A DNA stretch of 64,000 bases from an uncultured Clostridium sp. (GCA_948469655.1 CAOKMF010000004.1:11452-75451); one strand, 5' to 3'; shown: positions 1-15,858, numbered from the stretch's first letter. Made by a program: numbers and translations. The notes: a model not told the origin generated them from the sequence alone.

Positions 1-3000
1 TATTTTACCGGTTTCCACCACCTGCTGGTACAAATTCCACAGATGATAAATATACTGGTTTGTCTAATTTAATAATAATGTAACGTTCTTCATCTGTACC
101 ATTCCATGCTGAATGATATCTAGTATTATAATTTGCATCAATTGCATTTGTTGCAGCTCCAGCATTATTTGTAGCTTGTGTTGAAACTCCTGCAATAGAT
201 AAATGAGATACTGGTATATATTTTCTTGTATCTGGTTGATTATCAGGGGTAAAATTATATACAGGAGATACAGAACTTGTAAGTTTTGTTCCGGCTTGCA
301 GGCTGTCTTATTTGTACTGTTTTGGTACCTGTTAAATCTGGTGAAGCCGTACTATATGAAATCCATGGGTCTTTTTCTGTATAACGCCATTCTGTATTTA
401 GATTAACACCAATAACTCTATTCTCTAAATCATTTGCAAATAAGTTAGCTGGAAGAGCTTGTTCTGTTATATCTATTTGGAATATAGTGTTATCATTACG
501 AGGAACTCCTTCAATGTTTATATAAATATCATTTGCAGATGTTATAGATGCAATTTCTGTTTCAGTTAACTGCCATTTATGTTCTTCTTCAGCTGTAAAT
601 GAGTTTCCAGTCTTCCATGTTTGTTTTCCATCTAAGCTATATTCAAAACGGAAACCGTTTCCATCAAATTTACTTGCAAATACAAGCTTTCCTGCATTAG
701 CCCCATCAAATGAAAATGTTGCAATAGATTTATCTACTTTTCCAAGTAAATGGTTTGCTTCAAGCCTTGTTAAACTTGGTTGACAAACTCTTGTGACACT
801 ATTAGGAAGTGTACTTGCTTCTTTTAAAGTATTTGTTTGTAAAAGTGTAAATTTATAGGTATTTTCTACACTTGTTAAATGTGGTTTTATTAAATTTGTT
901 AATTGATACATTGGCAATGGGAAATCTTTTAGAGCTTCTGCTAATTCCTCTGCTAAATCACAAAATTGGTCTTCAGTTTTACTATTATTTGCATTATATA
1001 AAAGTATTAAATTATACCATGCGTCAATATTTATAGGTTGTTTTTCTAATGCTTTTCTATATATTAGTTCTTGTCTTTCATATACTTCTTCCTGATTTTC
1101 TAAGTTTCCGCTATATACATCTGCAAGCATAATAACTTCTTCTGCTTTTTCAAAGTTTTCGTAATCATTTAATGCTTCTTGTGCAAGTTGCATGTATACT
1201 ACTGTATATCCCGTAGCAAAGCTTCTATTGTTACCCCAGCCAAGTAACATTCTTTCACCTTTTTCTGATAACGTCCAACCACTTACGTCGTTATCAATAT
1301 TCCAATATCCTTTTCCATAGTATACACTATTAGGATCCATGTTTTGAGTATAATATAGAAGTGCTGCATGTCCTGGTTGACCAATAACAGTTGCCGGTAT
1401 TCCATGAGTTGCACGAATATTTGAACCACTTTTTGATATACCACCACAAACACAACCAGTACCAAATTTATTTCTAAAGTTCATCCATACTTTATACAAT
1501 TTATAATCTGGTGTGCCTCTTGTTACTTTAAATGTATAAGTTTGATTATTTTTACCCCCAGGTATGGTAAATGTCGTATCCCATAAACCAACCTTTTGAA
1601 CTTCGTCTTGAGTAAATTCTGTACCTTTATTATCAGCCTTCTTATTTACTGCAAATAATTTATTAAAATAATCTACATTTTCTTCAGCATAATACCTGCT
1701 ATCCCCGTAATTTGGCCATACATATGCTATATATGGGTGAGGTGTTATATATTTGTATTGTCTATATTTATCTATGTTATCTTGAACATATGCATTTAAC
1801 CATAAAATCTCTTCGTCATCTATTAGATTATTCATAATAAAACGCATTTCTTCAACATTTAGAGTTTCAAACCATTTTGCTATATTCCATGTTTCTCCTA
1901 TTGCTGTTAAATCAAACTTATCATTTTCATACATATATTTATATATTGCATAACGTTTAAGCGCATCTGATTTGTTTTCTGCTGCACCTGATTGCATCCA
2001 TAAACCAACTGTTTGTGTATGTGTTAAAGAAAGTGTAATTGCCATTTTTTTATATAAATCGCCTCTAGTCATACCTTCTGTGCATAAATCATTGTTTATT
2101 ACTGTATTATTTGCAAAATCGCTACTATATTCATCATAAAGTCTAGAAAGCTGAGTTAATGAATTATAATAGTTTCCTCCGTCTGGTGCTCCACCAAGTA
2201 AGTAAAGACGTAAGTTTTCTGCTTTGTCTCTTTCTGCATTATCATCTTTTCCTAATTCACTGTTATACATTAACCAATTAAGTATGTTTTTATTTTCCTC
2301 ATTTTCTGCTATAAAGCGTCTTAGAGCATATGGTCCAACTCTTTTTACAAAAGTTCTTTGTAATAGAGCTAGCTCATAATCTGGATGTTGCTTAATATAT
2401 GTAGCTATATCTGTATTTTCATTTATATTAGCACTCTTTAATATTGCATCTAATTCTGAAAGTAGAGGCACTTCTTCCTCACCAGGCTCTTTATATCCAT
2501 CTTTTATTAATTTTGTATCAGCATAAACAGAATGGTCATTTCCATTAGGACCATTTGAATCTGCTACTAATCTTAAATATTTATTTTGTCTGATATCAAT
2601 TCTAATAGGTGTCGCATTTTCTCCAGGTTTTTTTATAATATCTCCACCTATTGGATCACCCCAGTTAGTTCCATCTTGAGATGTATAAATTCTATATATA
2701 ACACCATTGCTAGAACTAGCAGCGGTTTTATTCATACCTATGTATGCTGTAAAATAATCATAATCATATCCTGTTAAATTATATCTTATATCAGATGTTG
2801 CATGAGCCCATAGTCCTTTATCAAAAGAATAATATCCTCCCTCTACTTTTACAGAAATTAATGAGCCATCAGAAGCTTTATCTTTTATAAAACTTCCCCA
2901 ACCAACCTTTGTATAGGTTGGATCTAAGTCTGATAAATAATAATATTCTGACTCAGTATTTTCTTCTGATTCTTCACTATTTGCAAATACTATAGAAATC

Positions 3001-5014: not shown

Positions 5015-5157
5015 AAGTTCAAAAAATAAACTTCGTATTACGTCGTTAATTTTGCTTCAAAAATCCTCAACGTACACCAGTACATCTCCGGTATTTTGAA
5101 GCAAAATTGCCTAGTACTACTTGTTTCTTTTTTGAACTATTCAGAGAGAACTTCGCC

Positions 5158-5338
5158 AAAAGTCCGCGACAGGCAGTCTATATATTTTTTTTAATCTGCG
5201 AGTTCGACCTGACAAGATTTCTCATTGCGACTAATAGCAATTCGTATCTACACACAAACAAGCGGTTAAACTAAACGCCTTGGAGAACGGAACAGTTAAA
5301 AAACAATATATAACTGCCTTGGCATGACATCGTTAAAC
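5158..5338. repeat. Copy A of a ~180-bp palindromic intergenic element. A long inverted repeat (about 5172-5202 and 5288-5318) flanks a ~85-nt variable core. It is noticeably more GC-rich than its surroundings and lies between purH and dapB.
   Basis: Left arm GGCAGTCTATATATTTTTTTTAATCTGCGAG, right arm CGGAACAGTTAAAAAACAATATATAACTGCC, which is the reverse complement of the left arm. A second copy lies at 7491..7672. Confidence 0.6.
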
Positions 5339-5385
5339 CTAAACTCTCTGAATTCTTATAAATCATAAATGAAAGGAATTAAAAA

Positions 5386-6132
5386 TATGGATATATTAGT
5401 TAGTGGAGCACTTCGGAAGAATGGGAAAGGAAGTTATAGATTGCATAGAGAAAGAACCTGATTTGAATTTTGTATGTGGTTTTAACCAATTTGCAGGAAG
5501 TGTATGTGATGTTCCTGTATATGACAAGATTTTGGATATAAAAGAAACTCCTGATGTTATTATAGATTTCTCTCATGTTCATTTAACTTTAGAAATATTA
5601 AAATATGCAAATGAAAAGCATATTCCAATTGTTATTGCAACTACTGGCTTTAATAGTGAGCAGGAAAAAATATTAGAAGAATCTGCTAAAACCTTACCAA
5701 TCTTTAAATCTGCAAATATGTCTTTTGATATAAATCTTATGTGTAGATTGGTATCTGAGATTGCTCCATTATTTACAAATTCTGATATAGAAATAACAGA
5801 AACACATCATAGAAATAAAGTAGATGCACCAAGTGGAACTGCTCTTCTTCTTGCAAATAGCATAAATGATGCAGTTCGGTGGAAAAATGAAATATGTGTA
5901 TAATAGACATGATTTATCTAGGAAAAGAGACGATGACGAAATCGGTATTACTTCTATTCGTGGTGGTAATATTGTAGGAGAACATACTGTACAATTCTTT
6001 GGACTAAATGATACGTTTGAAATAAAACACACATCTTATTCTAGGTCTGTTTTTGCAGAAGGAGCAGTTAAAGCTGCTAAGTTTATTAAGGATAAACCAA
6101 ATGGACTTTATTCAATGAATGATATGGTATAA
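5386..6132 (+). CDS. dapB: 4-hydroxy-tetrahydrodipicolinate reductase DapB. Reading frame interrupted by an extra C at 5414 (CTT-C-GGA) and at 5877 (GTT-C-GGT).
   Basis: Removing the two Cs gives MDILVSGALGRMGKEVIDCIEKEPDLNFVCGF...INDAVGGKMKYVYNRHDLSRKRDDDEIGITSIRGGNIVGEHTVQFFGLNDTFEIKHTSYSRSVFAEGAVKAAKFIKDKPNGLYSMNDMV. The GxxGxxG NAD(P)-binding motif and the DapB C-terminal domain are present. Confidence 0.85.
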
Positions 6133-6139
6133 TAATAAA

Positions 6140-6180
6140 AATGATGTAATTCCTTGGAAAGAATTACATCATTTTTTATT
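6140..6180. terminator. Bidirectional rho-independent terminator between dapB (+) and the gltD-like gene (-).
   Basis: Hairpin AATGATGTAATTC-cttggaaa-GAATTACATCATT followed by a T-run. Confidence 0.6.
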
Positions 6181-6181
6181 T

Positions 6182-7426
6182 TAACTTCTCATATATTTTC
6201 TCTGCTGCGTTTCTTCCGAGACATTGCTGCCCATGCAACAGTTGATTTTTCTCCGAACCAAATCACCTGATGCAAACACATTTTCCATTGATGTCTCCAT
6301 ATTTTCGTCTACTTTAATGTATCCCCATTCGTTTAATTCTAGTCCTAATTTTTCTAATACATTTTTATCTGGATTTGAACCGAAGTGCCATAATTACAAA
6401 GTCCATTTTTGCTTTATAGTTTGAGCCTTCTATATTTACTGGTCTTTCTCTATCTCCCTCTACTGCCACAAGCTCTGTTTTTATACACTCAATTTCTTCT
6501 ACATATGATTTCCCTAAGATTTTAACGATATTATTTTGAAACCAAAATTCTACTCCTTCTCGCATTGCATCTTCTACTTCTTCGTCTTCTGCGGGCATTT
6601 GCTCTCTTGCTCTTCTATATATTACAATTGTTTTCTTAGCATTTTTCTTATTTACTGTTCTTGCTACATCCATTGCAGTATTTCCGCCACCTATTACACA
6701 AACTATCTTGTCCCTAAAATCTGGAAAATCTTCATATTCTAAAAGTTCATTTCCACCATATACTCCTTCTAGCTCTTCACCGACCTATGTTCATTTTAGA
6801 AGATATATTTGCTCCAAATGAAAGTAAAACTGCATCATACTTTTCTTTTAGCTCTTCTAAAGTAAAATCTTTTCCAAGCTCTTTTCCTAAAAATACTTCT
6901 ACACCTAAATCTAAAATTTTCCCTACTGCATTTTTTATAACTTCTCTTGGAAGTCTAAAATCAGGTATACCATGAGATAAAAGTCCTCCGTATTTCTTTA
7001 TGTTTTTCATATATGTGAGTCTTAAATCCTCTTCTTGCAAGGAAAGCTGCAGCTGTAATTCCAGATGGGCCTCCGCCAACAATTGCAACTTTTTTATTTT
7101 TATCTTCTTCTAGCTTTTCTATTTTCCAGTTCTCTTTTATCGCCATATCTCCGAATAAAACTTTCAAGTTTTCCAATCGATACAGGCTCTCCTTTTATTC
7201 CTCTTACACATTTTCCTTGGCATTGCTTCGAATGTGGGCATATTCTCCCACATATTGGCTGCAATACTGTTGTATCTAGTAATACTTCATATGCTTTTTT
7301 ATATCCCTTTTCTTTTATGCATTTTATAAATTCTGTTATATCATTTCCAAGGGGGCAACCACTTCTACATGGCTTTGTTTTACAACTTAAACAGTATGAC
7401 GCAAGTTTTTGAATCTCTTCTTCCAT
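6182..7426 (-). CDS. NAD(P)H-dependent Fe-S/FAD oxidoreductase of the glutamate synthase small-subunit (GltD) family. Frame broken by at least 6 extra C before Gly codons.
   Basis: N-terminal Cys clusters [19 protein letters not shown]...[22 protein letters not shown]-binding motif [32 protein letters not shown]. Reconstructed C-terminus ...[71 protein letters not shown]. Confidence 0.75.
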
Positions 7427-7490
7427 TTTCTATTACATCTCTTTTCTATATATTTTTTAGATTTTACAGATTCATAGCTTACTCTTGCTT

Positions 7491-7672
7491 AAGGTCCGCG
7501 ACAAGGGGTCTATATATTTTTTTTAATCTGCGAGTAGCGACCATTTTGGCTTTCCTATAGCGAATACAACAGAGTGTGTATCTGATATATGAAAAGTATG
7601 TGTCTTAAACGCCTTGGAGCGCGGAACAGTTAAAAAACAATATATAACCCCTTAGGCAGGACATCTTTAAAC
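7491..7672. repeat. Copy B of the ~180-bp palindromic intergenic element (arms about 7504-7535 and 7622-7653), in the region upstream of the gltD-like gene.
   Basis: Arms AAGGGGTCTATATATTTTTTTTAATCTGCGAG and CGGAACAGTTAAAAAACAATATATAACCCCTT. Relative to copy A the outer stem differs by paired changes (GGCAG/CTGCC versus AAGGG/CCCTT) that preserve complementarity. Confidence 0.6.
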
Positions 7673-7696
7673 TGAATAGCTATGAATATTGAATAT

Positions 7697-8203
7697 ATAT
7701 ACATATTTATTCCGCTTCTAATCTTTGTTTTGCTTCCTTCAAATCTCTCCAAAAATCTATCTTCTTACTCTCATCACGAAGAAGTGCTGCAGGGTGCCAA
7801 GTTGGCATATACCATATCCCATTCTTTTCTACCCATGTACCACGAGAGCTAGTTATACCATATTCTTCACCTAAAATATTTTTTAAGGCAACACTTCCGA
7901 AGTAAAACTATAACTTTTGGCTTAACTAGCATTACCTGAGCTCTTAGATAATCTATACAGGCTTCTGCCTCATCTTTTTCAGGGTTTCTGTTTTGTGGTG
8001 GTCTACACTTTACAATGTTTGCAATATATACATCTTCTCTTTTTATTCCAAGTCCGAATAAAAGCCTTGTTCATAAGCTGTCCTGCTTTTCCTACAAAAG
8101 GTTCACCGCTCCCTATCCTCGTCTGCTCCCGGTCCTTCTCCTATAAGCACAAGATTCGCATTTCTATTTCCGAACTCCAAATACAATATTTTGTCTCGTG
8201 CCA
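7697..8203 (-). CDS. Uracil-DNA glycosylase, family 4. Frame broken by 3 extra C before Gly codons.
   Basis: Reconstructed MARDKILYLEFGNRNANLVLIGEGPGADEDREGEPFVGKAGQLMNKAFIGLGIKREDVYIANIVKCRPPQNRNPEKDEAEACIDYLRAQVMLVKPKVIVLLGSVALKNILGEEYGITSSRGTWVEKNGIWYMPTWHPAALLRDESKKIDFWRDLKEAKQRLEAE. The GEGPG, FVG.AG and HPAALLR motifs are present. Confidence 0.8.
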
Positions 8204-8279
8204 TGTAATTTACACTTTTTACATTCTTTTATTCCTTCTTCTAATTCTTCCCATGAACTATACATATTTAATACACCTT

Positions 8280-9203
8280 CTATATTACAGCTTGTTCTAC
8301 TAATTTTATTTTTTCTTTTGCTTGAGTATCAATCACTGCATTTACTCCAATCGGAATTACAGTTTTCAAAAGTCCATGTCCAAAATTATCTGATTTAATA
8401 ATTGGGAAATTATAATTATTCTCTAATGTATCAAGAACAATTTGTTCTAAAGTAATTCCGCTTTCATGCTCATAATTTCCGTATCCATAAGCCCTTTATT
8501 TTATCAAACACGCCGGTTTTGCACACATTTGTATAGATAATTAGAAACCATTCCAGGGGGACTTTCAAATCCTAAATCTTCAATAAATAGTATCTTATCT
8601 TCTAAATCTACTGTGTATTTTCCAGTTATTAAATTTGAAAACAGACATAAATTTCCACCGAACTAACTTTCCGCTTCCCTTTCCTTCTCTTACCACTTTA
8701 AACTCGTCTTCATCTGTTCCAAGTTTTAAATCTTTATCAAGAAATCTCTTTATAACTTCTTTATATCCATAGTCAGTCTCTTCATCACTTAAAGATTTAA
8801 AGTTTGGTCCATGAAACGTAACAAGTCCTGTGCTTGCATTTATAATGTTTAAAACAGAGGTTGGATCACTATAACCACAAATTATTTTAGGGTTATCTTT
8901 TATCATATCATAATCTAAATAATCAAAAACAGAATTACAATTAAACCCACCGCATTGTACAAAATATGCCGGTTTATACTTTTATCCTTAAACATTTCAT
9001 TCAAATCTTCTGCTTTGTGTTTTGCTGTTTCCCCATATCCAAGTGGATTTTCATATGCGTATTTCCCAAACTTTACATTTAAACCGAAGACCTTCCATCT
9101 TTTTAACTGATTTTTGTACTTCTTCTATTTCTTCAGACGTAATTGGATCTGATAAAGAAACAACCCCAATGGTATCTCCTTTTTTTAACTTGTTTGGTAT
9201 CAA
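8280..9203 (-). CDS. ldcA: LD-carboxypeptidase (S66 peptidase, LdcA family). Frame broken by at least 5 extra C before Gly codons.
   Basis: TTG start with RBS GGAGGA 7 nt upstream. Reconstructed ...LKKGDTIGVVSLSDPI...KSINGIFCTMGGFNCNSVFDYLDYDMIKDNPKIICGYSDPTSVLNI...GSGKLVGGNLCLFSNLITGKYTVDLEDKILFIEDLGFESPPGMVSNYLYKCVQNGVFDKIKGLWIGNYEHESGITLEQIV...GHGLLKTVIPIGVNAVID. Confidence 0.8.
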
Positions 9204-12154: not shown

Positions 12155-12300
12155 TATTTTATCATATCCCTTCTATAAAGTATAAATTTGATTGGAAAAG
12201 AATTAAATTTTGGCTAGGCGTTCAAGAAAGAAATACTGGAGGCGTGCTTTTTAACGCTAAAGGATTTTCTTTTGCAGAACTTAGGCGCCAAAATTGTAAT

Positions 12301-15300
12301 TATTTTTCAATCTTCTCCCAAGCTTCTTCATCTGAAAGATTTGGAATATAATTATATTCATTTCCAAACTTAGCTTTATCGAACTGACAAATTGACTTAT
12401 ACAAGCAAAATTCACATGCTGATTTTTTTGATTTATAATATGGATTTATATCAATTTTTCCGGCTTAAAATCTCCTTAGATATTCCTTTTATAGTTTTTA
12501 TAATATACTTTTGTAAAACTTTAAACTGTTCTCCACTTATACTGCTAGACCTTCCTTCTGATAAGCTTCCGTCATTTTTAATATATGCTGGAATAATATT
12601 AGAGCTACCTGTATCTAATGATTTATCCATCATTTTAACAAGCTTTACATCAGATGCTATAAGCCCTTTCATCTTAAAGTTTCTTTTTATATCTTCTTCT
12701 ATTTCTTCTTTTGTTTTTCTCTTATCAAGTTTTTCTGTAAGCATATTAAAATATAAAACAGCTGCAGCCTTAGCGTTTTCGTACTTGCAGATAGCATCTA
12801 AATATGTTAAAAGTTGAAGCTTAAGTCCATATGCCACATCATTTAATTTTATAAAGTTATTCGAAGATTTATAATCAATAATTCTTAAATATTTTCCGCT
12901 CCTCATCTTTTGCTATATCTATTCTATCAATTTTACCAACTATTTGAACTTTCCTTCCGCTCCTCTAGTTCAATCGCAATAGGCGGATATTTTTTATTTT
13001 CTCCAAACTCTACCTCATGCCCAAGCACCTCAAAATCACTATCTGTTATTGATAAAATTATATACTTCATTGCCTTAATAATTAATCTTTTTAATCTAAA
13101 AGTCTGATTTCTAAATTTAGCTGAACTTATAAATATATAGTTTTCCTTTAGGTTTAACTTTTCTTCTATAATTTTATCTATTATTTCTCTTGTTTTTTCA
13201 TCTGTTATTTCCTTTAGATTAATTTTATTATTTTCTATCTCTTCAAAAAATGTATCTATTACATCATGCATAAAGCTTCCTGTGTCTAAACTTTCAAGCT
13301 TAAATGTTTTCTCCTCTTTAAGTTTTAAAGCATATGTTAAATAAAATGAAAAAGCGCATTTTTTGTAATTCTCAAGCCCTGATACGCTTGTTTTTAATGT
13401 ATCTCCATATAGTTTTTTTATATTATTTTCGTTTAAGTTCTCAGGCTTGTTCGAAAAATCTAATCCTTTAACTGCATTTTTTAATCTTTCATTCCAGTTC
13501 TTGTCTTCTTCAAAAATTTTGTAGATACCAAACCAAATATCATCTATTTCTTTTCCATCTTTAAAATTTCTAATATTTAATAAAAGGTCGGAAAAAGCTG
13601 CATTCATCACTGTAATCTCAGCCTTCTTGCTAATAATATCACTCTCTTCTTTTAAATTTGGAAATATCTTTTTTATCTTCAAGCACAAAGTAGATGGTTT
13701 AAGAGAATTTCCCTCGCTATCAGAAGAAACATAGGATAAATATAACTTTTCTTCAGCTGTACTAAATGCTTTATATATATTAAAATTGTCGTCATATAAA
13801 TTTTCTAGAGTAGTATTTGCAATATGTATGTCCATTTCTTTTAATTTTTCCCTATCATTATCATTTAAAAAGCCTTCATTCGTATTTACACCAGGGAAGC
13901 TTCCGGTCATTTAACCCGAATAATAAATATGACTTTTACAGTATGGCTTCTTGACCTATCTACATCACCGGACCGTTATCTCATCAAAACCTGCTGGTAA
14001 CTTTCCAAGTCCATTCTCAGAAAATGCTATTTTTAAAAGAGAAGCGTACTTCTCAAATGAACAAGTATCTTTTTCAAATATCTTTGCAATTTCGTCAAGT
14101 ATTTTTATAACCACATTAAAACTTGCTTCATAATCAGTAGCAAGGTCTGCATTCTCTTTAGAAACTCTCTCTGCTTCTTTTCTTAACTTTTTATCAATTT
14201 CATTCTCGATTAAAAACTCATATATTGCCTTGCTCAAAAGAGCACCAGTCATACTTTTATAGCATTTATCTTTAAATCTTAAAAGTGGATTTACAATTTT
14301 TTTTCTAATATCATTTAATCTCTTTAAATTCTCTTCATCTTCCCCAAATTTCCAGTCTTCTTTATACCATTTTGAATATTTTATACCTAGCTTTTTTGCA
14401 TAGTTTTCTAAAATATATATGTCCATATCTGAAACTTCTAAAAATTTAGACTTAGCATATGCAATCACACTATCATATGACCAATTTTTCTCAAATACAT
14501 TTAAAACTCCGAAGTATATATTTAATTAAGATATTTTGGCTTAAATCTTTCTTTTCGTCAATATATACAGGTATATTATATTTAGAAAATATTACTTTTA
14601 TTAAACCTGAATATGTATCTATATTTTTTGTAATAATACCAATTTCTCTATATCTATACCCGTTATCCCTGACTTCTTTAATAATTTTTGATGCAACATA
14701 TTCTATTTCTGAATATGGATTATTAGCTAAAAAAAGATTAATGTTTTCAGGCTCATTTTCAAACCTGTCATATATAGTTGAATAAATATTTTTTTCCAAA
14801 ACTGCAAGTTCTTTAGATTTAAATCTATATGGCTTATCTAAATGAACTTTTTCTATTTTTTTTATATTTGTAAGCTCTGCTAGTTTAATTAATTTATTTG
14901 CTGTAACTTTATTACTATAGAAAATATCTGTATCTTGCTCTGTATTTTCTAGGTTTAAATCATCTGTACATAACGTAACAAAAATATCTTTTGAAATTTT
15001 TAAAAGTTCTTCTATAACTTTATATTCTTGTGGAGTAAATCCGCACAAACTCATCTATGAAAATTACTGAATTCTTAAATTCCTCTGCATTTTTTAAATT
15101 CTCTGCAAGAAAATCAAGAGAATCATTTTCATCTAAAAACTTATCTTTTATAGCATTTTGAAATTTGCTATATACTAGATTCAAATCAAGTAATTTTGAT
15201 TTTAAATATTTATCGTCAAGTTCTTCTGCAATCTTTAAAAGCTTTCCTTCTGTTATATTATGTTTTTTAAACTCAGTTATAGAACGTTCCACAATCTCTG

Positions 15301-15637
15301 TGTTTTGCAAATTTTTACCTAAGAATGTAAGTTCATTTTTTGATTTGTCTAAAATATCATAAAAAAGCATAGATTTGCCAAAGCCTTCTATGTTTTTTAA
15401 ATCATTCCCATTTTCATTTTTTACTCTATATGCCATACGTGAAAAGGTTAAAACCTCAGCATTTATAACAGCACCTGAACCTATTTCATCAAGAAGCCTT
15501 TTTTCTGCTGTAAAAGAAAATTGCTCAGGTGTAATTATATATATTTTTTTCGTATCTTTAATTATCTCTTTAATCTTCTTAAAAAGATACGTACTCTTTC
15601 CATTTCCTGCTTTTCCATAGATTAGATTAAGTGCCAT
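12301..15637 (-). CDS. addB: ATP-dependent helicase/nuclease subunit B (AddB/RexB), about 1,110 aa. Fragmented into at least 5 ORFs by extra C before Gly codons. No addA gene lies next to it.
   Basis: N-terminus MALNLIYGKAGNGKSTYLFKKI (Walker A). C-terminal PD-(D/E)xK nuclease with Fe-S cysteines: RIIDYKSS...GKIDINPYYKSKKSACEFCLYKSICQFD...SDEEAWEKIEK. Confidence 0.8.
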
Positions 15638-15858
15638 CTATTTAAGTAATCCTTTCTATAAAATACTCTCTGTCAAATAATAATTAAAACTTGCGTTTGT
15701 CACTCTAATCAAAAAATTTCGCAGAAATTCTAATATCCTTTTATGGCACCCTTTCAAGGTAAACTTGAACTATTTCCATAAAATTATTTAAGAATTTCTA
15801 TGCTCAATTTTTTTCAGCCGTTTCTCACTTAAATTTTAACTATTATTTGACTTAAATT

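Follow-up and report, generated by a model that had tools for sequence, protein, structure and literature searches.

The window analysed here, that is, the whole 64,000-nucleotide (64-kb) stretch of DNA from an uncultured Clostridium sp., contains two copies of a long palindromic element in its intergenic DNA. Both copies, A and B, are real, as an earlier note on this DNA had proposed, and they lie on the plus strand, with extents (5139-5353 and 7470-7687) slightly wider than the 5158-5338 and 7491-7672 given there. Copy A is situated between the stop codon of purH (5014) and the start of dapB (5388). Copy B is flanked by two minus-strand pseudogenes, one S66-peptidase-like (stop at ~7707) and one gltD-like (start at 7426), and gene calls in same-species contigs place it antisense to both of these neighbours. 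Each copy consists of a long stem (P1) around a core whose ends form an inner helix (P2), as follows:

5016-5138, no strand assigned: separate hairpin element of 123 nt that abuts copy A and starts 2 nt past the purH stop; it gives a self inverted BLAST match
5139-5353, plus strand: copy A, outer helix to outer helix (DNA fold 5139-5148:5344-5353; covariance-model match 5170-5322, 117.9 bits)
5162-5171, plus strand: left outer conserved block GTCCGCGACA, found also at 7494-7503, with partial pairing to 5321-5329
5171-5198, plus strand: copy A, left arm of P1, AGGCAGTCTATATATTTTTTTTAATCTG
5199-5292, plus strand: copy A, core of 94 nt, with left end CGAGTTCGACC (5199-5209) and right end TAAACGCCTTGGAGAACGGAA (5272-5292)
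5202-5205:5285-5288 and 5208-5209:5282-5283, plus strand: copy A, pairs of P2
5293-5319, plus strand: copy A, right arm of P1, CAGTTAAAAAACAATATATAACTGCCT
5321-5338, plus strand: right outer conserved block GGCATGACATCGTTAAAC, with its counterpart at 7655-7672
7470-7687, plus strand: copy B, full extent (DNA fold 7470-7479:7678-7687; covariance-model match 7502-7656, 113.9 bits)
7503-7530, plus strand: copy B, left arm of P1, AAGGGGTCTATATATTTTTTTTAATCTG
7531-7626, plus strand: copy B, core of 96 nt, with left end CGAGTAGCGACC and right end TAAACGCCTTGGAGCGCGGAA; a U:A to G:C change on both sides keeps P2 paired
7627-7653, plus strand: copy B, right arm of P1, CAGTTAAAAAACAATATATAACCCCTT

Several housekeeping genes in this part of the window are broken. 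dapB (5388-5903) is disrupted near 5412, by a 1-nt insertion, and again near 5903, the gltD-like gene (6365-7426, minus strand) is broken in at least 3 frames, the S66 peptidase gene (7707-9000, minus strand) is interrupted by frameshifts, and addB (12451-15637, minus strand) is in about 5 pieces. The same fragmentation is seen in independent short-read assemblies of the same species, and these are therefore real pseudogenes rather than assembly errors. Between the convergent dapB and gltD-like genes lies an ordinary bidirectional intrinsic terminator (6137-6176; AT-rich stem of 16-18 bp, T-runs on both strands). Farther along, the minus strand carries a long run of large surface-protein genes (21000-55700; Cadherin-like, Big_2/Big_3 and RCC1 repeats) with extensive internal and paralogous DNA repeats, e.g., at 40.2-41.2, 42.9-43.8 and 44.2-45.1 kb.

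The 27-nt left block GTCTATATATTTTTTTTAATCTGCGAG (5176 and 7508) and the 43-nt right block TAAACGCCTTGGAGNNCGGAACAGTTAAAAAACAATATATAAC (5272 and 7606) each occur exactly twice in the 64 kb and not once in shuffles, and the shared flanks GTCCGCGACA (5162, 7494) and GGCAKGACATCKTTAAAC (5321, 7655) are real and likewise confined to two sites in the window. The inverted arms, previously given as ~31 bp, are genuine, with a true complementary length of 28/27 nt, interrupted by two bulges and a single U-C mismatch; what had been quoted as arm ends, GCGAG and CGGAA, belongs to the conserved core instead, and the right block differs between the copies at two positions (AA vs CG), not one. An outer 10-bp helix closes each copy (ATTCAGAGAG/CTCTCTGAAT in A, 5139-5148:5344-5353; ATTCATAGCT/AGCTATGAAT in B, 7470-7479:7678-7687), and three of its pairs are changed between A and B with the pairing intact. 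Overall, the arms of the two copies are 100% identical and the 64-65 nt core middle is 54% identical, while seven base pairs differ with pairing kept (the long-stem tip and the outer helix account for three each, and P2 for one) and no helix position is disrupted. The paired stem substitutions reported earlier are real (AGGCAG...CTGCCT in A vs AAGGGG...CCCCTT in B). Enrichment in GC is only mild (0.35-0.41 vs 0.26-0.33 in most neighbouring intervals; in summary 37-41% vs ~30%), and nearby coding DNA reaches 0.44-0.48; to call the element GC-rich was therefore an overstatement, and an argument from GC-richness is weak. Two other readings of the repeat structure were discarded. The outer hairpin (GTCCGCGACA...GACATC), considered as an independent repeat that hosts the element in its loop, has no further copy in the window or in 124 loci, and a direct repeat shared by the 3' portion of the core and the 3' flank, which looked conspicuous in copy A (GTTAAACTAAAC vs GTTAAACCTAAAC), is not significant across 13 loci.

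The host belongs to the uncultured Clostridia of the gut; its purH is 79-90% identical to purH of MAGs labelled Clostridium sp. or Clostridia, including CAG:452, and synteny around both copies is conserved in relatives. The purH-dapB spacer, which measures 372 bp in the window, is 9-82 bp long in the closest relatives (L001, L002, L007 and L008), and the spacer upstream of gltD, ~290 bp in the window, is ~10-95 bp long in L001, L008, L009 and L013. These short, empty spacers in close relatives indicate that the window copies are insertions. Both copies are present in 8 independent short-read same-species assemblies in the same places and the same orientation and with almost no variation, and the insertions are therefore fixed in the species. 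Other relatives (L006, L013, L002, L005 and L008) have different long-stem elements in the same spacers, and the presence or absence of the family is sporadic among close relatives. When the element was compared by BLAST with 80 purH-centred loci of related genomes, one diverged homologue was obtained, in a rabbit-gut Clostridia MAG (L006), with the same core-end motifs and an entirely different long stem; with the covariance model, too, 1 of these 80 related loci (1.24 Mb) carries a family member.

A wider family was recovered from metagenome contigs. The exact 18-base pattern AAACGCCTTGGAGNNCGGAA matched 43 loci, of which 24 are low-GC contigs with the whole element; the high-GC loci among the 43 are chance matches. 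In total, 21 full copies from gut metagenome contigs and one related MAG score 92-137 bits with the covariance model (R1, built from 20 copies), and the local GC of the organisms with homologous copies is 21-38%. One 6.4-kb contig (L118) has two copies, after mreB and after mreD, the second of which was missed by the pattern and caught by the model. The earlier note had let its hairpin depend on there being more than two copies and on covariation among them; further copies do exist, and they covary.

The basic unit of the family is ~150 bp long and consists of near-perfect AT-rich inverted arms of 26-30 bp (up to 34; complementarity 93-100% in the copies examined) around an asymmetric core of 92-96 nt. 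The left core end is YGAGTTCGACC and the right core end is AAACGCCTTGGAGAACGGAA, also written (C)GTATCTTAAACGCCTTGGAGAACGGAA; the two ends pair together, and a semi-conserved RGTGYGTATC is found near the core centre. As the right-hand motif, taken as 18 exact bases, was the search key, its invariance is partly an artefact of how copies were found. The asymmetric internal loops (5' YGA vs 3' GGAA; GA vs A) are invariant in all copies, and in 14 independent copies the length of the core middle is 63-66 nt and its median identity 58%. Within a genome the arms are identical (A vs B; the two L118 copies, L118a vs L118b), and between genomes they differ. In the genome of the window, ~30 nt of extra conserved sequence and the 10-bp outer helix are added on each side, giving ~215 bp in total; copy lengths overall are ~150-220 bp. 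Contig L118 also contains, at 1330-1507 (minus strand), a distant relative of the family alongside its two bona fide copies, with perfect 29-bp arms and a 117-nt core that starts with GAATGTGACC and ends with GTAGGAGAACCGAA; in this relative, P2 does not pair in the register of the family. A relic is seen in a divergent intergenic region of two further contigs (L107 8291-8416 and L117 7813-7938), where only the right-hand 20-nt motif AAACGCCTTGGAGAACGGAA and an AT-rich arm are present and the left half of the element is missing or replaced.

Comparison with known families returned nothing for the element. With Rfam, for which the earlier note had proposed a check, no known RNA family was matched: cmscan with 4227 families against the window and 15 loci gave nothing at gathering scores for the element, and at E up to 10 nothing relevant was found in the window and seven homologous loci. 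The 64-kb window as a whole has no Rfam match at gathering score, and those in relatives are a skipping-rope RNA (L005 329-411, minus strand, 61 bits) and a ZMP/ZTP riboswitch (L010 7281-7362, minus strand, 47 bits). ARAGORN found no tRNA or tmRNA, blastn against PLSDB and INPHARED found no plasmid or phage match, and a pattern scan of viral contigs gave one match only, due to chance, at 40% GC. The literature search found the motifs in no relevant context, its keyword matches being general repeat literature only. A tRNA-like, or T-arm, reading of GAGTTCGACC was rejected, as the motif has no flanking stem and no ARAGORN or Rfam match. So was a small ORF in the core: a reverse-strand frame (FRSPRR...) runs through some copies, but the stops differ in position in L114 and L104, a start codon is lacking, no frame includes the left motif, and ORFs on both strands are not conserved in the alignment. 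The element family is without coding capacity.

At the metagenome loci, the copies adjoin unrelated housekeeping genes (mreB-mreC, mreD-PBP2, dnaX-ybaB, a histidine kinase and an S1-domain protein) and start 6-55 nt (mostly 13-36) past the stop codon of the upstream gene. In many low-GC gut bacteria, the family has thus come to occupy intergenic DNA immediately past stop codons. Relative to the flanking genes, the modelled strand reads antisense in 10 of 12 independent tandem-gene loci, the exceptions being window copy A and L006 (two-sided binomial p ~0.04, for loci that are not fully independent). An orientation that tracks replication might fit copy A too, as purH and dapB are on the minority strand of the window. 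No target-site duplication (di- to octanucleotide) was detected at 11 junction pairs, where a palindromic 2-bp target could hide inside the arms, and neither a transposase or recombinase nor a partner gene was seen among the 28 window ORFs checked against Pfam. Derivation of the arms from a terminator at the target was rejected, because the two loci of one genome (L118a and L118b) have the same outer arm.

Base pairing between the two halves of the element was assessed in a model-guided alignment of the 21 copies. Paired cells amount to 95.0% compared with 78.6% in column shuffles, 14 of the 21 pairs are changed on both sides, and none of 500 shuffles reached the observed pairing values; when the partner was slid by 1-3 columns as a control, pairing was 36-61%. 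Support from covariation is strong for both P1 and P2, the latter being formed by GUUC:GAAC followed by CC:GG across a GA/A bulge, whereas RNAalifold gives no consensus helix in the 64-nt middle. In P2, double changes have arisen twice independently (U:A to G:C in window copy B, C:G to U:A in L118b). Alleles of a single locus from different metagenomes (L084, L101 and L119) display two mirrored changes per arm, with one hybrid allele. These mirrored and double changes indicate that pairing between the halves is maintained. The hairpin is not due to chance. The earlier step from compensatory changes to selection on a hairpin fares less well: the changes are non-random, but in a long, near-perfect DNA palindrome they are by themselves no proof. 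Hairpin-templated correction, i.e., quasipalindrome template switching, is an established mutational mechanism, and because it can mirror changes without selection, the compensatory changes in the arms are weaker evidence than they appear. That the asymmetric loops persist suggests that such correction has not simply run to completion.

Other long-stem elements are present in the window and in its relatives. The hairpin element at 5016-5138 shares the architecture of the family without being homologous to it (AT-rich arms of 15 bp, GTTCAAAAAATAAAC/GTTTCTTTTTTGAAC, and a ~92-nt core with an inner hairpin, TTTTGCTTCAAAAAT/ATTTTGAAGCAAAA); weak BLAST matches link it to L012 and to L017, in the latter within the same intergenic region. 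Between an addB fragment and an OGG-like glycosylase gene, a long-stem intergenic element (15672-15851) has 21-bp arms (GTCAAATAATAATTAAAACTT / AAATTTTAACTATTATTTGAC) and a 138-nt core containing a 36-nt imperfect palindrome. A 90-nt element with short arms (AATTTTGGC/GCCAAAATT) lies directly past a stop codon at 12214-12300 (minus strand), and its GAACGCCTAG motif resembles AAACGCCTTGG of the family, to which it may be distantly related. Another palindromic family (fam2), unrelated to the first and not in Rfam, again shows the architecture of long variable AT-rich arms around a ~90-nt core (CCTTGCTGTCGCAA-hairpin-TTGCTCCAyTCGCACTTCGCTTCGCT..GGTCGCTTACGCGG). Its sites are L006 7590-7676, 11601-11670 and 15350-15417, L008 4572-4695, L005 11634-11735, L010 4638-4694 and 14520-14646, and L031 4277-4347, and in L006 it occupies the same two intergenic regions as window copies A and B.

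Several known classes of element resemble the family in part. BOX/RUP of Streptococcus pneumoniae are small interspersed repeats whose terminal repeats form a duplex by hybridisation; they occur preferentially downstream of coding sequences and follow the coding bias, are transcribed together with their neighbours and rarely transpose (Croucher et al. 2011, PMC3049150). Like them, the new family is non-coding, 100-200 bp long, intergenic in a low-GC Firmicute and non-random in orientation, with a long terminal duplex. In contrast to BOX, which was compared by its published features, it lacks the modular A-B-C structure of variable box number, no sequence relationship was detected, its core ends are conserved across genera while its arms diverge, and we know of no IS with matching ends. 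REPs, as outlined in PMC3733652, are 20-40 nt long and G+C-rich with a GTAG or CGTC tag. The family shares with the REPIN/RAYT (IS200-like Y1) system a hairpin-forming inverted doublet as the replicating unit, complementary arms that are homogeneous per genome, an extragenic position after genes and the lack of a target-site duplication, and recognition of a single strand would explain its strand bias. Its arms, however, are AT-rich, there is no conserved tag at the arm foot, the spacer is a conserved 93-nt core, and no RAYT gene was found in the 64-kb window; with no GTAG/CGTC tag and no short G+C-rich palindrome, it cannot be classed as a REP.

The likeness to MITEs such as Correia of Neisseria lies in the length of ~150 bp, the terminal inverted repeats of 26-30 bp, the non-coding, multi-copy and intergenic nature, and the folding into a hairpin when transcribed. 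Terminal inverted repeats are indeed present, the arm sequence having two occurrences only within the 64-kb window. But no TA or other duplication is found at the 11 junctions, no parent IS is known to us, and it is the inner core rather than the tips of the terminal repeats that is conserved; with no target duplication at these junctions and no known parent IS, the family is not demonstrably a MITE. A GC-enriched intergenic block with covarying helices in an AT-rich genome is also typical of the Firmicute and metagenome RNAs catalogued in Rfam, yet none of the 4227 families matches the window or the seven homologous loci. An integron attC site (R''/L'' and L'/R' boxes, RYYYAAC...GTTRRRY, at the hairpin foot, with a cassette array and intI nearby) was rejected: there are no attC boxes, the hairpin foot varies, GTTAAAC is found in copy A only and outside the stem, and the flanking genes are syntenic housekeeping genes. 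Multiple dispersed non-coding copies that are present or absent between related genomes do make the family a set of small interspersed repeats, while membership in any named family is not demonstrable. Its unusual traits are core ends conserved across genera, arms that diverge and yet are homogeneous per genome, and a middle of constrained length.

The earlier note had left open whether the hairpin is an RNA element or a MITE-like terminal repeat. If it were a dispersed structured non-coding RNA (an sRNA gene, or a cis element of operon transcripts, with a functional core and the long stem as processing stalk or closing helix), the covariation of P1 and P2, the asymmetric internal loops conserved in all copies and the constant core length would follow naturally. 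All four pairable non-Watson-Crick cells of P2 are U:G or G:U on the modelled strand only, including a population variant in L131, and some variable hairpins (L108/L123 and window copy B) likewise have wobble pairs on that strand. The P2 cells fit a single-strand function of the modelled strand, as RNA or ssDNA, and the invariant loops and constant middle length keep such a function alive. The arms behave differently. RNA helices normally accumulate G:U pairs, but the arms are without these usual wobbles: G:U accounts for 4 and A:C for 6 of 65 non-complementary arm positions, and one-sided (wobble) cells are absent from all 15 modelled P1 pairs. The whole element folds with z-scores of -3.0 to -4.6, which are due to the arms, since the core alone shows no extra stability relative to dinucleotide shuffles (mean z of -0.34 and -0.44 on the two strands), and the middle has no consensus helix. 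At the window copies and three other loci, no recurrent promoter or terminator occurs at a fixed place, and a scan for intrinsic terminators at the elements gave only a small chance hairpin (7492-7511). An outward promoter (TTGGAG, N17, TATAAT-like) was rejected, its spacing being inconsistent and the scanner giving no call for it, as was a likeness of TTCGAC(C) to the Spo0A 0A-box, with a 6/7 match only. With 10 of 12 loci antisense and 2 sense, the element is neither consistently co-transcribed nor consistently independent, and its sporadic presence among close relatives and the empty Rfam search up to E of 10 also speak against a structured RNA. Several tests thus lean towards DNA rather than RNA, and of the two options the evidence leans to the MITE-like one because of the empty sites in relatives, the unrelated flanks, the lack of wobble enrichment in the arms, a thermodynamically unstructured core, and the lack of a recurrent promoter or terminator and of an Rfam match. 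We consider the structured RNA doubtful, while according it real weight.

Two further explanations bear on what the palindrome does in place. The element could have arisen or been recruited after stop codons as a signal of the host, i.e., an oversized terminator, a stabiliser of mRNA 3' ends or a protein-binding site. The position 6-55 nt past upstream stop codons, the very stable hairpins, the A-runs and T-runs in several arms and the other long-stem elements in the same intergenic regions of relatives are in agreement with this, but no G+C-rich stem with a T-run is detected at any copy, the ordinary terminators of this genome (6137-6176) look different, the element is found inside operons such as mreBCD and dnaX-ybaB, and close relatives do without it. 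Homologous copies also adjoin unrelated genes in organisms of 21-38% local GC, which requires spread by copying. An origin as host signal is quite improbable in our assessment. An inverton, in which a site-specific recombinase flips the 93-nt core between the arms and thereby switches a promoter, is more improbable still, to the point of being nearly negligible. It would be in keeping with near-perfect inverted repeats around a short asymmetric segment, with the occurrence of both orientations relative to neighbour genes across loci and with the TTGGAG hexamer near the right arm. Against it, each locus has a single orientation (copy B in 8 contigs, copy A in 3, L084 in 8 and L099 in 3, in assemblies that show the majority state only), no promoter recurs, the core ends form covarying pairs, for which inversion has no need, the elements sit in housekeeping operons, and no recombinase is among the 28 window ORFs (Pfam). 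An invertible segment of 93 bp is also shorter than the switches known to us.

Our preferred reading, which we hold to be somewhat better than an even bet, is that the copies are non-autonomous mobile palindromic insertion elements of the BOX/RUP, Correia, ERIC or REPIN kind. Their copying or movement would depend on an enzyme whose gene lies elsewhere and which recognises the single strand in its folded form, and the recognised features might be the hairpin and its conserved asymmetric internal loops, by analogy with HUH/Y1 enzymes acting on REP/REPIN and on IS200/IS605 ends. Such recognition in trans, if it operates as proposed, would account for the kept pairing, the missing target duplication, the strand bias and the conserved loops. 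Once inserted, the element would probably be co-transcribed with the flanking genes, and its main effect on the host would then be to place a very long hairpin between the cistrons of the mRNA, where it could serve as an RNase III substrate or as a 3'-end protector; this analogy is based on the behaviour of ERIC, Correia and BOX in transcripts, as summarised in PMC3049150. The pseudogenes and the other long-stem elements of the window are consistent with a proliferation of selfish repeats.

Some observations count against the mobile element. The 28 window ORFs checked revealed neither an autonomous partner nor a mobilising enzyme, no transposition event and no empty/filled polymorphism within one species was observed, and conservation is the inverse of that of a textbook MITE, with core ends kept across genomes and outer arms diverging. 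A core middle of constant length at 58% identity is not obviously expected of junk DNA. It is conceivable, and on present evidence unlikely, that the family and the sister families of the same architecture form an undescribed class whose function resides in the folded single strand (stem, loops and 64-nt middle). Such a class could take the form of a structured RNA freed from its processing stalk, or possibly of a mobile element recognised as ssDNA, with a duplication-free, strand-specific insertion mechanism aimed just past stop codons.

Small palindromic repeats of the interspersed kind are familiar from a few cultured pathogens, and to our knowledge they have hardly been charted in the uncultured low-GC Clostridia that dominate gut metagenomes. 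The present family is undescribed but ordinary-looking, and is most likely one of the small selfish repeats of intergenic DNA that form a familiar class, not a system of a new kind; that its conserved folded core stands for a new RNA or a new single-strand transposition mechanism is the less expected outcome, to which we give a low probability. The family is easily recognised by covariance model R1 or by the core-end motifs, marks insertions inside conserved operons and would put duplexes of 26-30 bp into mRNAs. Such elements are also a practical confounder in GC- or covariation-based ncRNA screens, where they mimic structured RNAs because maintenance of the palindrome yields compensatory changes. 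If recognition of a single strand is correct, the conserved loops, the lack of duplication and the strand bias would together indicate a transposition chemistry that has not yet been linked to an enzyme in Firmicutes. For the host itself, the real pseudogenes together with several repeat families form the pattern expected of a lineage under relaxed selection.
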